Under the pieces are notes generated by a model that worked only from the letters and a program-made list of their open reading frames with translations, ran no database searches and had not been told where the DNA came from. The position numbers and the translations under genes were made by a program. From Gemmatimonadota bacterium (GTDB lineage: Bacteria; Gemmatimonadota; Gemmatimonadetes; Palauibacterales; KS3-K002): a DNA stretch of 35,201 bases. Positions 4,181 to 9,920 of the stretch are shown here, piece by piece (within the stretch, counting starts at the first letter, position 1; every line of letters starts with the position of its first letter). The stretch is taken from assembly GCA_039586795.1 (NCBI GenBank), contig JBDHJS010000037.1, positions 1 through 35,201 on the forward strand, in the 5' to 3' direction.

Positions 4181-6799
4181 TCAGTTCCCCAACCGCTCCC
4201 GCAACTCCGCGAACCAATTCAGCACCACGAGGTACCGCGACGTTGCCGAGGATTCTGAAACACTCACGTTTGGAACCAGGACGATAAAGCGATCGCCCTC
4301 GGGGTGAAGATCCCAGCCCTGCCCCGTTTCGATAGCGAGCACAGGCTCCGGAGTGCCGACACGCACGCCTTGCTCGCGGATCACTTCGACGCCGAAGAGC
4401 GTGTCGACCCCGGAGGTCCGCCGCCAGAAGTAGAGCGTCCTGCCGTCGGGCGACCAGCGGGGCCACTCCCCGCCGCCGAACGAAACTCGCCACTCTCCTA
4501 CAGGCGTGGGAAAGTCGCGTAGCCAGACCTCCGTGGGCCCGGTCTTCACGGACGTGTGGGCGGCGATGGACCCGTCAGGAGACAGCGCGAAAGCGCTTTC
4601 GTCCCACGGCGCTTGCAGGTAGGGTTCAGGTTCAGAATCTCCCGAGAGGGAGTACATCATCAAGTCGTCGTTCCCCGCCTCGTCGGAGCCGAACACGATC
4701 AGCTCGTTTTCGAGCCAGGCCAGGGGCCACTGGTTCCCGGGCCGGCTCAATACCCTCTGGGCGGGGCCGCTGTTGTCCGCCGGCTTGACCCACAGATCTT
4801 CGGCGTCGCTCCCTTCCCCCTCGTTATTGAAGAGGATCCGTTCTCCGTCTGGAGACCACACCGGATCGTCGTTGTCCTCTTCGAACGTGATCTGCGTTCT
4901 CGAGTTCGTCACGAGATCGTACGTGTATAAGTCGTGGCCATCGTCGCTCGTAACCTCGAAAGCAATCGTGCGCCCGTCCGGTGAGAAGCTGGGATTTCGC
5001 ATCACCTCCGGTGGGAGACGAAGGGTGTCCGCTCCTCCTGCCATGTTCACGATCAGCAACAATTGACCGCTTCCTCCGCCGAACGCCTCACCCTCGAAGT
5101 GAACGAGCGTCCCGTTTCGCGACAGGGAGTACCCTCGTCGGAAATTCGTGGCCGCCACACGGTCGAGGACGCGTATCGGAGGGCCGCTGAGCCTATGGCT
5201 ACGCCTGTCGAACGGCGCGGCGAACAGGCCGCCAGCCTGGCCAACGTACAGCAGGGTGCCGGGATCGATGTACGTGGGGTGACGACCATCAGGCACGACC
5301 GTCCAGAAGGTGTCTGCGGAAAGGTCGCCGAAGGAGATGCCGCCCCCAAACCGGCTTACGAGAACGCCCGAACCATCCGGCAGCGACCAGGGAACGCCCC
5401 GTGGACCGTTGAGCACCTCGGCGGGACCGCCGGCGCTATTGACGCGGTAATGAAGGCCGCCCTGCAGCGAGAAGAAAACGATCGTTCCATCATCGCCCCA
5501 ATGAGGGAAGAACGGGTTGATCGTGTCAGTGTCGACAAGCGTCAGCGAGCCGCCGCCGGACACTGCCACTTTCATCAGTGCATTCTCGGAGATATTGCTG
5601 AACACGAGCCACTGACCATCGGGAGAGAAGCTGGGAAAAAGACCGTCTTCGGTGCCGGGCACCATCCGGAAGTCGGCCTCGCCCAGCCTGCGGACGTAGA
5701 TCGCCCGGGTTCCATCGACCGTACCCGCGAAGGCGAGCGCGGACCCGTCGGGTGAGATGATCACATCCTGATTCCCCTCGACGGAGACCGATCCAAGACT
5801 GAGATCGAGCCGGGTGACCGGCGCGTCAGGTGTTTGCCGTAACCAGCCCCACACGGTAGTGATCAACAACAGTGCCGCGAGCGCAGCTGCCGGCAGCGCC
5901 AAGCGTCGTCGCCAATCGGTGGCTGGTGCGCTGACGGCAGCCGACTGCGTCGTCGCCGTCGCGAACGCCGGATCGGCCAGCGCCTCCGCGAACCTGGCAG
6001 AGCTTTCGAAGCGGTCCGCCGGCAGCTTCGACAACGACTTCTCTACGGCGGCGGCCACGTTAGGCGGCACCGAACGGCGCAGTTTGGTGACGGACTGCGC
6101 CTCTTCCGTCACGATCTTCATGATGATCTGCTGCGCCGTAGAGCCGACATGCGGGGGATCACCTGCCAGCATCTCGTATAGCACGCAACCCAATGAGTAG
6201 ATATCGGACCGGTTGGTGATGTCCTTCTCCGCCGTCGCCTGCTCGGGGCTCATGTAGTGGGGCGTGCCAAGCGACAGTCCCGTCTCGGTCATCCGGCCGC
6301 CCGCCGCGGCGGAGACCGCCAGCGCGATCCCGAAATCCGCCACCATCGGCCGCCCGTCGTGCAGCAGAATGTTCTCCGGCTTGATGTCCCGGTGGATCAC
6401 CCCGTTTCGGTGGGCGTAGTCTAGCGCGTCTGCCACCTCGGTCGCGATCCTGGAAGCCTCATCGACGCTGAACTGTGTCTCACGGTCCAGCTTGTCGCGC
6501 AGCGTCTCCCCCTCGATGTAGGGCATGACGTAGTAGAGGAAGCCGTCGGCCGTGCCAGAATCATACAGCGGCAGGATGTGTGGATGCTGGAGCGCCGCCG
6601 TGGTCTTTATTTCCTGCACGAATCGCTCGGCGCCCAAAACCGCGGCGAGCTCGGGCTTCAGCACCTTGAGGGCGACCTTGCGCTCGTGTTTCACGTCGTG
6701 CGCGAGGTAGACCGTGGCCATTCCACCCGCGCCCAGCTCACGCTCGATGCGGTAACGGTCACTCAGGGCCGCGTTCAGGCGATCGATCCCTCCATTCAT
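4181..6799 (-). CDS. Hanks-type Ser/Thr protein kinase with TM helix and C-terminal TolB/PD40-like beta-propeller
   Basis: Kinase motifs LGAGGMATVY, VALKVL, HRDIKPEN, DFGIA and GTPHYMSPEQ; a TM segment near aa 300-320; repeated FSPDG/WSPDG PD40-like repeats. Confidence 0.95.
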   Translation of the reverse strand: MNGGIDRLNAALSDRYRIERELGAGGMATVYLAHDVKHERKVALKVLKPELAAVLGAERFVQEIKTTAALQHPHILPLYDSGTADGFLYYVMPYIEGETLRDKLDRETQFSVDEASRIATEVADALDYAHRNGVIHRDIKPENILLHDGRPMVADFGIALAVSAAAGGRMTETGLSLGTPHYMSPEQATAEKDITNRSDIYSLGCVLYEMLAGDPPHVGSTAQQIIMKIVTEEAQSVTKLRRSVPPNVAAAVEKSLSKLPADRFESSARFAEALADPAFATATTQSAAVSAPATDWRRRLALPAAALAALLLITTVWGWLRQTPDAPVTRLDLSLGSVSVEGNQDVIISPDGSALAFAGTVDGTRAIYVRRLGEADFRMVPGTEDGLFPSFSPDGQWLVFSNISENALMKVAVSGGGSLTLVDTDTINPFFPHWGDDGTIVFFSLQGGLHYRVNSAGGPAEVLNGPRGVPWSLPDGSGVLVSRFGGGISFGDLSADTFWTVVPDGRHPTYIDPGTLLYVGQAGGLFAAPFDRRSHRLSGPPIRVLDRVAATNFRRGYSLSRNGTLVHFEGEAFGGGSGQLLLIVNMAGGADTLRLPPEVMRNPSFSPDGRTIAFEVTSDDGHDLYTYDLVTNSRTQITFEEDNDDPVWSPDGERILFNNEGEGSDAEDLWVKPADNSGPAQRVLSRPGNQWPLAWLENELIVFGSDEAGNDDLMMYSLSGDSEPEPYLQAPWDESAFALSPDGSIAAHTSVKTGPTEVWLRDFPTPVGEWRVSFGGGEWPRWSPDGRTLYFWRRTSGVDTLFGVEVIREQGVRVGTPEPVLAIETGQGWDLHPEGDRFIVLVPNVSVSESSATSRYLVVLNWFAELRERLGN

Positions 6800-7105
6800 C
6801 CGAACGATTCCTGGAGGTTCTTCGAGAAGAAGCCAGTTGACGGGAGTACACGACGGGCGCGGCCGTCAGCGTAGCTCGGTTGGGGCATGCCTGCTGAGCT
6901 CCGTAGGGTAGAGGTCGGTGCCGCGGAGCGAACGCGTGGCTCGACCGCGGTGCACGAGACCCGGGAATATGCCCAATCCCCGGGTTTCCAGGCAAGCTCC
7001 ACAAGACCGAACTTCTGCCGCGCCTCAGATCTGATGTCACGCAAGGCGCTGATGATCCGCAACAAGTTCAAATCATGATAGAAAGCCGTACTAAATCCCT
7101 TGTAC

Positions 7106-7122
7106 GGATGCCCACGGCATCC
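7106..7122 (-). promoter_or_regulatory. Candidate bacterial SECIS element 2 (for UGA at 7137-7135), lying in the 3' UTR
   Basis: Minus strand GGAUGCC-GUG-GGCAUCC: a perfect 7-bp stem with a loop starting GU, beginning 12 nt after the UGA. No U-tract follows, so it is unlike an intrinsic terminator. Confidence 0.68.
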
Positions 7123-7128
7123 TGGCCT

Positions 7129-7536
7129 CTACCCTCAACCGTACCAGGGTTTCTCGTCCGGCTCTACCTGCAGGCCCTCCAACAGTTTGTTGAAACCGCT
7201 GAACAGGTCTACTACCGCCATCAGCTCGACGATACCCGCATCATCTAATCCCAGCTTCCGCACCGCGGAAGTGTGAACCTTGATTCAATACTCGCAGCCC
7301 ATGACTGCAGACACGGCTACGGCAATGATCTCCTTTGTCAGTCGATCGAGCTTTCCGGACTCGACCATCACGGCCTTGACCTTGTTCCAGTTCGCCTCGA
7401 GAAAGTCGGGCTTCGTCGCCATCGCCTTATACATGTTCGGCACGAAGTCGATGCCTAGGGAGTTCATGATCTCCTCATACACGTCTTTGACTTTGCCCTC
7501 AGCTTTTTGCTCAGAGATCAGTTCCACAGATGCCAT
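7129..7536 (-). CDS. AhpD/carboxymuconolactone-decarboxylase (CMD)-like peroxidase-related selenoprotein, 135 aa, with predicted Sec84 (CEYU) and Sec134 (YGUG-stop)
   Basis: SD GGGGAG precedes ATG 7536. KEIIAVAVSAVMGCEY-TGA(7287-7285)-IKVHTSAVRKLGLDDAGIVELMAVVDLFSGFNKLLEGLQVEPDEKPWYG-TGA(7137-7135)-GGG-TAG(7131-7129). The sequence after the first TGA completes the AhpD-like CxxCxxxH helix and fold. Both TGAs are followed by SECIS-like hairpins. Confidence 0.88.
7255..7271 (-). promoter_or_regulatory. Candidate bacterial SECIS element 1 (for UGA at 7287-7285)
   Basis: Minus strand CUUCCGC-GGU-GCGGAAG: a perfect 7-bp stem with a GGU loop, starting 13 nt after the UGA. Confidence 0.8.
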
Positions 7537-7680
7537 GTTACTCCCCCATCAATCTGTTTCTTAACTAGCAGAAACGACACGCATGTTGCGAACTTTGCAA
7601 CCGGCAGCCAGCGAGTGCCAGCAGCCGCGAGTACCCTTTACTCTAAGGCCATCGACTTATGAGACATGCGGCGTGCGGGA

Positions 7681-7710
7681 TTGACTGGTCACGACCGACG
7701 CCAGTATGGT
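7681..7710 (+). promoter_or_regulatory. Putative sigma70-type promoter for the small ORF at 7841
   Basis: TTGACT (7681-7686), an 18-nt spacer, then TATGGT (7705-7710) in the divergent intergenic region. Confidence 0.35.
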
Positions 7711-7840
7711 GTGCGAATCGCAAGCGACTGGACCTGCAACTCCCTCACTCTATCGTCATGGCCATGGGCATGCAACCGTTCGTGCCAATGAAGCCTCGCC
7801 CGGTAGAAGTCTCTTCAATCCTAGGATGGGAGAAACGATC

Positions 7841-7993
7841 ATGGAGACGATGTCCGCGACCATCGAGCGACACCATCGGAAGATCATCGCGGCGCTACTA
7901 TTTGTCATAGCGTTCTTTGTAGCGGCGTGCACGTTTCATGACATTCTTCCGATTTGTCACTTCCTCTTCGGATGTGACCACGGGATGCACTAG
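7841..7993 (+). CDS. Small single-TM protein (about 50 aa) with a His/Cys-rich C-terminus
   Basis: GGGAGA SD precedes ATG 7841 (alternative ATG 7850). METMSATIERHHRK-IIAALLFVIAFFVAA-CTFHDILPICHFLFGCDHGMH. The stop abuts the convergent gene end at 8004. Confidence 0.6.
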   Translation: METMSATIERHHRKIIAALLFVIAFFVAACTFHDILPICHFLFGCDHGMH

Positions 7994-8003
7994 CTCGCTC
8001 GGA

Positions 8004-9920
8004 CTACCACCGCGGCGGTAGGTAATTCCAGCGTGCAAGAAACGCGAGCACGAGGACCACACCAACCGCCAGCGACGTGAAGTACGAGCGACGCACGATT
8101 CCCCAGTACCGATAGCTCCAGGCGCGCCACGTAAACGCAAGCACGGCCAGGCCAAGCGTTAAGAGCATATAGGGGACGACGGCCAGCAGTTGCATTTCGC
8201 TCGTCATTCCATAGACGATCCCGCTCGACGTCTCGAGCATGCGAATCGACCGCGCAACGAATCCGAAGGCAAACACGACGAACAACACGAAGAATAAGCT
8301 CGCCGCACCCAGTGCGAACCAACGGCCGGGCTGACGTCCGCGCGAGGTAGCCTCACGGCGTCGCTTTCGCCACCACCATGCTCCGAGCGACGCCAGAGGC
8401 CAGAGCGCGAACAGCACGATAAGGGGGACGCCCACCAAGAATGACATATACTCGTTCTTGAAGGAGGGTCCATCGTACCACGGCAATCGCTCGTAGGCGC
8501 CCGGCAACGCCGCCCCGAATGCCTCTTCGGGTGCGAACATGTGGGTGATGTTACCCTCCGCGTCTCTCCGGAAGGCGATCATGCGCGTACCGTCGACCTC
8601 GCGAAACGCGAGCGAGTCGACCGGGGCGAACTCCACCGTGCGACCTCCAACGGATAGCCTGATCACGCCATCCCGTGACCCCACCCGCCTCGTCATCCCG
8701 AACAACATCGGCAGTCGTTCGATGGTCGAATGCGCGTACCGGGTGAGAAGATACGAGCCCGCAAACGACTCTACGTAGCTCGGGTCCAGCTCCAGCGCGG
8801 CCACTTCGGGTTCGACATGATCAACGGAAGGCGCCATCGCCGAGATTATCGAATCGCGGAGCGCTCGCCCAAACCCCGCCCCTCCGCCATTCGCCACGAA
8901 GAAAAAGCCCATGCGCTCATCCGGAAGGATCAACAAGAGGCTTCTCGTCCCGGGGACCCCACCCGCATGCGCGAGCGCTCTACGCCCGCCCACGTCCTGG
9001 TTCAAGAAACCGTAGCTCATTCCCGGAAGCCGCGGATCGTGCGTGAACTGCTCGCGTTGCATGCGGCGGATCGCTGACGCTGGCAGTACCTCTTCACCAT
9101 CGATCACGCCACCGTTCAAGTGGGCCAAGAGAAACCGCCCCATGTCGGCGGCGGTCGCGTACGCGAGGCCGACAGGATACGGATGTGAAAACGGTTCCGC
9201 GACCGGCTCGCACGTGCCGCTACGACAAGAGTGTCCGACGGCTGTGAACTCGGCAATCGAATCAAGGCGAACGCGATAACTGGTGCGATGCATGGATAGT
9301 GGTGCGAAGAGCACGTCGTGGGCGAGGCGATCGAACGAAATGCCTGCTTCGGCCTCCAATACGTAAGCGGCGAGCGCCATGCCGTGGTTGGAGTAACCGA
9401 CCAGTTCGCCCGGCTCCCAACCCTGCGGCGGCATATTGCTCGCGAGATAGTCGCCGAGCGGCAGCATCGCGTCCCTCGAGGTCGCCGCGTACCCGATGAG
9501 TCTCTCATCGAGGCCGGCGGTGTGGGTCAAGAGGTGGCGAAGCGTTATCGGGCGATCGCCGCCCAACGGGACATTGGGCACAGCGTCACGAACATCCGCC
9601 TCGAGCGATACCTGTCCGCGTTCGGCCATCACGGCGGCAGTTGTCGCGACGAATAGCTTGGCAACGGATGCCACACGAAACGTGGTGCGTTCGGGGTCGA
9701 CGGGCGTCTTGTCCGCAACGCGTGCCAGACCGAATCCACCGAGATAGACGACGCTATCGCCCGCGACGATGACAAGCGCCGCTCCCGGAACGGAGTGCTC
9801 GGCCATCAACGCGGGGACGAGGGCGTCGAAATCGGGATTCTGCTGTGCAAGGAGGTCGCCATGGGCGACGGCGAGAACTAGTATGATCGCAAAACTGCAA
9901 ACACGATTCGCGTATGTCAT
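8004..9920 (-). CDS. Serine hydrolase, beta-lactamase class C/AmpC-like family, with C-terminal membrane helices
   Basis: Signal peptide; FRVASVAK (SxxK), LLTHTAG, YSN and HAGG motifs; about 4 C-terminal TM segments. Confidence 0.9.
   Translation of the reverse strand: MTYANRVCSFAIILVLAVAHGDLLAQQNPDFDALVPALMAEHSVPGAALVIVAGDSVVYLGGFGLARVADKTPVDPERTTFRVASVAKLFVATTAAVMAERGQVSLEADVRDAVPNVPLGGDRPITLRHLLTHTAGLDERLIGYAATSRDAMLPLGDYLASNMPPQGWEPGELVGYSNHGMALAAYVLEAEAGISFDRLAHDVLFAPLSMHRTSYRVRLDSIAEFTAVGHSCRSGTCEPVAEPFSHPYPVGLAYATAADMGRFLLAHLNGGVIDGEEVLPASAIRRMQREQFTHDPRLPGMSYGFLNQDVGGRRALAHAGGVPGTRSLLLILPDERMGFFFVANGGGAGFGRALRDSIISAMAPSVDHVEPEVAALELDPSYVESFAGSYLLTRYAHSTIERLPMLFGMTRRVGSRDGVIRLSVGGRTVEFAPVDSLAFREVDGTRMIAFRRDAEGNITHMFAPEEAFGAALPGAYERLPWYDGPSFKNEYMSFLVGVPLIVLFALWPLASLGAWWWRKRRREATSRGRQPGRWFALGAASLFFVLFVVFAFGFVARSIRMLETSSGIVYGMTSEMQLLAVVPYMLLTLGLAVLAFTWRAWSYRYWGIVRRSYFTSLAVGVVLVLAFLARWNYLPPRW

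Follow-up and report, generated by a model that had tools for sequence, protein, structure and literature searches.

Proteins of the AhpD type have peroxidase activity or serve AhpC as reductants, and lipoamide systems return them to the reduced state (PMC8945050). Variants with selenocysteine (Sec, U) in place of cysteine are known, as an earlier note on the present DNA had stated, and have been described since 2005: AhpD-like and CMD-domain selenoproteins with a CxxU motif were found in the Sargasso Sea (PMC1088965) and GOS (PMC2398784) studies, and the "CMD domain-containing protein" of the former is probably the "AhpD-like 2" of the latter. A 2026 inventory gives one Sec each to the AhpD-like and CMD-like families, three to a fusion of ArsM with AhpD and two to the MduS fusion (PMC13188914).

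The gene considered here lies in a Gemmatimonadota contig, within the 35,201-nt stretch of DNA that was analysed as a whole (the window). Judged from its sequence and that of its relatives, it almost certainly encodes a double selenoprotein of the CMD/AhpD type, with Sec predicted at positions 84 and 134 (Table 1).

Gene layout and read-through

The mechanical ORF call (7285-7536) comprises 83 residues and ends exactly at the first TGA, after ...MGCEY. An entry in a public protein collection has exactly this truncated form, the outcome that the earlier note had foreseen for standard gene callers. The same frame runs on through TGA84, in the context C-E-Y-TGA-I-K-V-H, and 49 sense codons to ...KPWYG, followed by TGA134, GGG and TAG, so that the 3' end reads PWYG-TGA-Gly-TAG. 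The 49 codons do match the second half of CMD proteins, as had been proposed. Against PF02627 (CMD, cut-off 23), the truncated form scores 28.9 bits over model positions 2-40 of 84, whereas the read-through product scores 62.1 bits over positions 2-80, near the full model, and Cys aligns at the UGA. The score against TIGR00778 (AhpD core domain, cut-off 27.8) rises from 24 to 52.8 bits. The interval 7129..7536 given in the earlier note is the right gene; its strand, left unstated there, is minus. The plus-strand reading of the same interval contains two stops and hence is not the gene. The earlier note followed the frame correctly to ...KPWYG and recognized U84, but overlooked the penultimate second Sec with its own hairpin. 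Because the next codon is itself a predicted recoded TGA, ...KPWYG is probably not the C-terminus.

A check of the TGA in reads had also been suggested. Among the contigs of the runs examined (4 of 24 listed), only one, of 503 nt from public run X1, bridges both TGAs; it is identical to 7063-7565 and carries both without difference, but X1 may be the source sample and the contig is therefore not independent. Contig pieces from X3 reach each TGA, but too near their ends, and the single contig of the RNA run (181 nt) lies upstream of both TGAs and says nothing on expression. Three observations had been named that would speak against Sec at position 84 (TGC or TGT in reads, no similarity downstream, no Sec machinery); none of them was made.

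Table 1. Features of the double-TGA gene and its flanks, in window coordinates.
Feature	Position	Strand	Remarks
Full gene; CMD/AhpD-like product of 135 aa, Sec predicted at two positions (U84, U134)	7129..7536	-	true stop TAG 7131-7129
Start codon ATG	7536-7534	-	read from sequence
Shine-Dalgarno-like GGGGGAG, 4 nt ahead of ATG	7541..7547	-	read from sequence
Glu69, 12 residues ahead of Cys81; predicted Glu-His relay partner	7330..7332	-	alignment
Cys81 (TGC), first residue of CxxU	7294..7296	-	C81 in at least 90% of 51 aligned rows
TGA84, predicted Sec in CxxU-xxx-H	7285..7287	-	conservation; downstream hairpin
His88 of CxxUxxxH	7273..7275	-	conservation
Putative SECIS 1, 7-bp stem, GGU loop, within coding region	7255..7271	-	pairing, covariation, fixed synonymous codons
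TGA134, predicted second (penultimate) Sec, PWYG-U-G tail	7135..7137	-	conservation; Cys in PWYGCG homologues
Putative SECIS 2, 7-bp stem, GUG loop, wholly in 3' UTR	7106..7122	-	covariation; begins 6 nt past TAG

Conservation of the two TGA sites

The two sites were compared in the best 80 of 121 genome loci and the best 80 of 378 metagenome loci. All but one of these 160 could be parsed; the exception, L090, retains TGA at site 84 but has lost its C-terminal part. In the 159 parsed loci, site 84 is TGA 147 times and Cys 12 times, and this distribution indicates that TGA is not there by chance. Site 134 is TGA in 149 and Cys in 10. Neither TGG, TAA nor TAG occurs at either site in the 159 loci, and none of them combines TGA84 with Cys134. 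The genome loci divide into 68 TGA/TGA, 1 Cys/TGA, 10 Cys/Cys and the unparsed one, the metagenome loci into 79 TGA/TGA and 1 Cys/TGA. Among the best 80 of the 121 genome loci, the two-TGA forms span 11 named phyla; those closest to the present gene are from Gemmatimonadota, with up to 88% identity. The loci are not independent of one another, as L031 and L039 encode identical proteins.

In related genomes the gene is patchy: a close match was found in 0 of 2 genomes of the same genus and in 5 of 30 of the same family. All five are TGA/TGA and, being apparently identical with L020-L024, are counted only once. Patchiness of this kind would suit a nonsense pseudogene, one form of a reading (the other being a sequencing error) that carries a negligible probability. 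It is ruled out by the conservation of both TGAs across phyla, the same codons recurring in about 150 loci of 11 phyla with the downstream frame intact; the identical X1 contig and a complete Sec machinery also stand against it.

The protein search gave 2646 matches, and in the 120 listed the residues at site 84, position 88 and site 134 are C/Y/C in 44, W/H/W in 31, C/Y/end in 18, C/H/end in 17, C/H/C in 5 and other in 5. That 36 of these 120 are annotated as ending at W[YFH]G would fit a protein of 133 residues in which UGA84 alone is Sec and translation ends at TGA134. A single Sec is also favoured by the stop-codon usage of the genome, in which TGA is the most frequent, and by release factor 2, which would compete at TGA134. 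The catalogued CMD-like selenoprotein, moreover, has one Sec and no such tail in the form given in PMC12013277. Termination at TGA134 is nevertheless very improbable. All 149 loci without Cys at site 134 have TGA there, TAA and TAG being absent, whereas the next stop downstream is free to vary (TAG 30, TAA 20 and TGA 20 of 70 genes, the window included), usually after one residue (57 of the 70). Cys occupies site 134 in 50 of the 120 listed matches (of 2646). P0013, annotated with 133 residues, matches L112, whose DNA goes on with TGA-Gly-TAG and a hairpin, and a covarying hairpin at SECIS spacing sits in non-coding DNA past site 134 (see below). P130, W131 and G133 are invariant across 51 aligned proteins; the tail is therefore under selection.

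In a quick tree (unrooted, with 43 of 89 inner branches open), the Cys forms P0037, P0044, P0002, P0010, P0015 and P0018 are interspersed with two-TGA rows, which hints that Sec was replaced by Cys repeatedly. The metagenome locus L173 (1501-1905) has an additional TGA at position 81 (UxxU plus tail U); this single locus may be either an error or a selenoprotein with three Sec. Genome G065, of the same family, carries L107, a distant AhpD-like gene with a single TGA (CHY-U-LNSH) and without the tail.

SECIS-type hairpins

Each TGA is followed by a hairpin that agrees with the published bacterial SECIS model (PMC13188914, section 5), the loop starting 20 nt past TGA84 in SECIS 1 and 19 nt past TGA134 in SECIS 2. 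The folding energies are -15.5 kcal/mol for site 84 (48 nt) and -13.8 kcal/mol for site 134 (43 nt). Since the z-scores of single-sequence folding are modest (-1.8 to -2.8), the case for SECIS elements rests on comparison. Of 69 two-TGA genes, 65 have a stem of at least 6 bp downstream of site 84 and 60 have one downstream of site 134, compared with 14 of 414 control codons; a stricter hairpin rule picks out 986 of 129,676 genome TGAs (0.76%).

In SECIS 2, 91.5% of 482 cells are paired vs 82.8% after shuffling, a value reached by 0 of 500 shuffles, and double (compensatory) changes occur at all 7 pairs; the relatedness of the loci inflates these figures, as it does the pairing, covariation and codon counts for SECIS 1. 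Pairing drops to at most 50.9% if the alignment is slid, and RNAalifold recovers, unprompted, 6 of the same pairs. SECIS 1 shows 96.1% paired cells vs 92.2% shuffled, with double changes at 4 of 7 pairs. Here the synonymous codons are nearly fixed: Ala91 is encoded by GCG in 140 of 146 cases and Val92 by GTG in 142 of 142, vs 486 of 1489 (33%) and 515 of 1922 (27%), respectively, in the remainder of these genes. The Cys84 loci L112 and L081 serve as natural controls, having failed the SECIS 1 test and kept TGA134 together with SECIS 2.

The hairpin at site 134 is not uniform. Only 47 of 78 two-TGA loci in the metagenome set (best 80 of 378) reach a 6-bp SECIS 2 stem, most others having 4-5 bp and the same core, and L079 has TGA134 with no typical hairpin there. 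Three Cys/Cys loci from Chloroflexota-type genomes (L087, L088, L089) keep the SECIS 2 core in the 3' UTR after TGC at site 134, possibly as a relic of a recent Sec-to-Cys change. A terminator scan of 6780-8050 found none, and by that scan SECIS 2, which has no U run, is not a Rho-independent terminator. A promoter scan of the same region gave a single promoter-like site, on the opposite strand and at chance level.

Selenocysteine machinery and genetic code

The genome (4.68 Mb, 97.8% complete) contains SelA (E 1.9e-137), SelB (364 bits, over cut-off), SelD and tRNA-Sec (anticodon TCA), each above its family cut-off. The SelD gene has an in-frame TGA of its own and, after it, a hairpin of 9 bp whose GGC loop lies at 17 nt. 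The proposal of the earlier note that UGA84 is Sec thus finds support in the aligned Cys of homologues, the conserved TGA, the conserved SECIS-type hairpin and the complete machinery. For 50 of the 80 genome loci, in 49 genomes that include incomplete MAGs, SelA is present in 36 of the 39 that carry a TGA form and in 7 of the 10 with Cys/Cys; because Cys/Cys genomes carry SelA too, its co-occurrence does not discriminate between Sec and Cys forms.

An alternative genetic code, with TGA read as Trp, would account for the W that stands at site 84 in 33 and at both sites in 31 of the 120 listed protein matches (of 2646); P0039 has W at site 84 only. Because no TGG is found at either site in the 159 DNA loci (best 80 of 121 and best 80 of 378), the W forms are most likely artefacts of gene callers using a table in which TGA is Trp. 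Trp decoding has practically no probability here and is contradicted by stop-codon usage: TGA is the ordinary and commonest stop of the genome, closing 1429 of 2936 ORFs of at least 300 codons, and the alternative residue at these sites is Cys. Decoding as Sec remains the preferred reading of both codons.

Other candidate selenoproteins with SECIS-like hairpins occur in the same genome (G000 C53:46943(+), C20:91946(+), C22:122451(-) and C59:49817(-)). These four are an ArsM-like protein (KG-U-IAG), a TPA-U-PTC protein, a PT-U-GCC protein and a small CMD-like protein (CYP-U-MEH); the family match is backed for the ArsM-like one only, and the genome-wide list of TGA-hairpin pairs from this search is mostly chance.

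Structure and proposed mechanism

The closest solved structure is 2OUW (Alkylhydroperoxidase AhpD core; E 5.4e-23, residues 2-128). A monomer model of the read-through protein, with a mean pLDDT of 80.8, consists of helices only, one of them spanning residues 82-94, and has no regular structure past 122. Residues 131-135 have a mean pLDDT of 40, which is compatible with a mobile tail but is no evidence that the tail extends to the active site.

In the AhpD motif the second Cys is the attacking residue, activated by a Glu-His relay, and for this reason Sec84 is proposed to attack, Cys81 to resolve and Sec134 to shuttle. A three-cysteine AhpD has reportedly been found in S. pneumoniae. The mechanism put forward by analogy, in which a CxxU redox centre is recycled by a flexible C-terminal Sec arm, is held to be reasonably likely. 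In translation, SelB-Sec-tRNA is very probably recruited for U84 by SECIS 1, inside the coding region, and for U134 by SECIS 2, a few nucleotides beyond the true stop, with termination at TAG, two codons after U134. Sec84, at the predicted start of a helix and activated by His88, would reduce peroxide or an oxidised partner, and Cys81 would resolve it to a selenenylsulfide. The flexible W-Y-G-U-G tail would then swing in, electrons passing between the CxxU centre and an outside reductant or client. The setting suggested by the genes next to relatives may be metal or metalloid stress, including arsenite methylation.

The residues of the relay differ between Sec and Cys forms. Position 88 is His in all 147 parsed TGA84 loci and Tyr in 11 of 12 Cys84 loci (best 80 of 121 and best 80 of 378); all 10 Cys/Cys genome loci have Tyr there, as do 63 of the 120 listed protein matches (of 2646). 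Within the Cys/Cys clade (L087-L089, L092, L094-L099; P0064 and others) the His of CxxCxxxH is replaced by Tyr throughout and the tail Cys is kept. Glu69 is poorly conserved, being Asp or Ala in many Cys/Cys homologues. With His88 often Tyr and Glu69 often Asp or Ala, the canonical proton relay is not kept family-wide. A similar Tyr/His relay has been described for sestrin (PMC11429811).

A bolder version, doubtful as it stands, would see in these proteins an uncatalogued subfamily of stand-alone enzymes, spread across phyla, and would have a Sec-to-Sec relay on an AhpD fold of 135 residues, with an arm like that of thioredoxin reductase, serve as a dedicated reductant for methyltransferases of arsenite or other metalloids. 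The tail Sec would be the more essential one, because Cys84/Sec134 forms exist and no Sec84/Cys134 form occurs in the 159 loci (best 80 of 121 and best 80 of 378).

Genomic neighbourhood

The window gene stands alone, between a Ser/Thr kinase gene (6799-4181) and a serine beta-lactamase-like gene (9920-8004) on its own strand, and its GC content is 54% vs 62% for the window. Two ORFs of the window, 12313-10178 (-, 711 aa) and 13459-12359 (-, 366 aa), have no Pfam or NCBIfam match. Some genes recur around related loci. Counted up to 4 kb from the best 80 of 121 genome loci, they encode a SigZ-like sigma factor (20), a CRFCP-motif protein (15), the arsenite methyltransferase ArsM (11), another methyltransferase that is MddA-like (7) and a second CMD protein (8); at least one of the five is present in 44 of the 80 and none in 36, and none flanks the window copy. 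The CRFCP-motif protein (about 170 aa, e.g., L074:2109-2681 (+)) is without an NCBIfam match. ArsR-family regulators also recur near related loci. A two-domain second CMD protein occurs in the window as well (23166-22723 (-), CxxC-xxx-H, ending CCKII), 15 kb from the gene. In L044 and L052 the motif of the second CMD protein carries TGA (CxxU). The double-Sec protein and the second CMD protein may work together, as their genes lie within 4 kb of each other in 8 of 80 loci and the latter is CxxU in L044 and L052.

The recurrent neighbours indicate metal or metalloid stress, so that a role in binding and transfer stays the main rival to the redox arm. The tail Sec would then capture As(III), Hg(II) or methylated species and hand them to the CxxU site or to a methyltransferase, an option that is on the whole unlikely. 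Of the 80 genome loci (best 80 of 121; together 0.54 Mb), 11 have ArsM no more than 4 kb away, compared with 2 matches in the whole 4.7-Mb genome to which the gene belongs, and ArsM is also near 4 of 80 short metagenome loci (best 80 of 378). The SigZ-like factor (20 of 80) belongs to ECF238, a group proposed to be probably metal-activated through a Cys-rich tail (10.1101/2019.12.11.873521). The recurrence of ArsR-family regulators points the same way, as do the catalogued ArsM/AhpD fusion with three Sec (PMC13188914, Table 1) and the dispensability of His88 in the Cys clade. However, the loci behind the neighbour counts are not independent (the L031 and L039 proteins being one), the window copy has no such neighbour, and His88 is kept in all two-TGA forms. 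A fused form was not found either: a weak search of 377 longer candidates gave one match, a tandem CMD protein. The redox arm remains the preferred of the proposed functions.

Comparison with known selenoproteins

The CxxU half of the finding is ordinary. The CMD-like selenoprotein MBW1767730.1 is likewise a one-domain protein of the same size class with CxxU-xxx-H, and by eye only, about half of its residues are identical to those of the present protein (PMC12013277). In contrast to the two recoded TGAs predicted here, it is catalogued with one Sec and shows no PWYG-U-G tail in the published form (PMC13188914, PMC12013277); as the tail is absent, it would lack a second Sec and need no SECIS past the stop. 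The AhpD-like selenoprotein (TIGR01926/COG2128, MCB9421940.1) shares the AhpD superfamily and CxxU with the present protein, but is longer (model of 178 positions) and has one Sec. Against TIGR01926 the present protein scores 73.9 bits, below the cut-off of 81.8, and among 4 natural homologues only P0037 passes (82.6 bits). The ArsM/AhpD and MduS fusions are multi-Sec and carry an AhpD-like CxxU domain like the one here, ArsM also being a recurrent neighbour of the present family. They are, however, methyltransferase fusions of about 340 residues, and the match extends over about 50 residues and stops before the tail. All named NCBIfam selenoprotein models compared score below cut-off and membership is rejected: ArsM_AhpD_UU (NF041537) 27 bits vs 510, MduS (NF045649) 15.3 vs 380, GSU3128 (NF041047) 22.8 vs 110, AhpD_rel_CFYUT (NF041238) 29 vs 175 and YciW-related (NF053654) 20.4 vs 310. 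Finally, 2OUW and proteobacterial CMD proteins have the same AhpD core but CxxC without Sec, and their alignments stop at 127-128, before the tail. Plasmid CMD proteins are 43-45% identical to the Cys homologue P0037.

The string PWYG has 0 matches in the rows displayed of the deep-Sep supplements (PMC12013277) and in the BSepDB supplement (PMC13326102). A full-text motif search for a PWYG-U tail in print gave one irrelevant match; Haft and Tolstoy (2025) and Haft and Gwadz (2023) may describe it. The CxxU site is of a known type, and the penultimate second Sec is absent from the catalogues examined, the published count for the CMD-like family being one (PMC13188914). Gene callers cut the gene to 83 aa or to 133 aa, or insert Trp, so that a widespread selenoprotein, present in at least 11 phyla among the bacteria of soil and sediment, is mis-annotated. 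The natural Sec/Sec, Cys/Sec and Cys/Cys versions form a ready series for the contribution of selenium at each position, and SECIS 2, free of coding constraint, would display the minimal sequence needs of a bacterial SECIS.

Bacterial proteins with a near-terminal Sec include SaoC, HgcB and KCU-star, whose folds are unrelated to the present one; their motifs are listed in PMC13188914, Table 1. Mammalian thioredoxin reductase ends in a C-terminal arm with Gly-Cys-Sec-Gly, and the likeness to it is a functional analogy: a Sec near the C-terminus on a mobile tail, on an unrelated fold. The tail described here has no Cys adjacent to Sec, and any partner of Sec134 must therefore be the CxxU site or another molecule.
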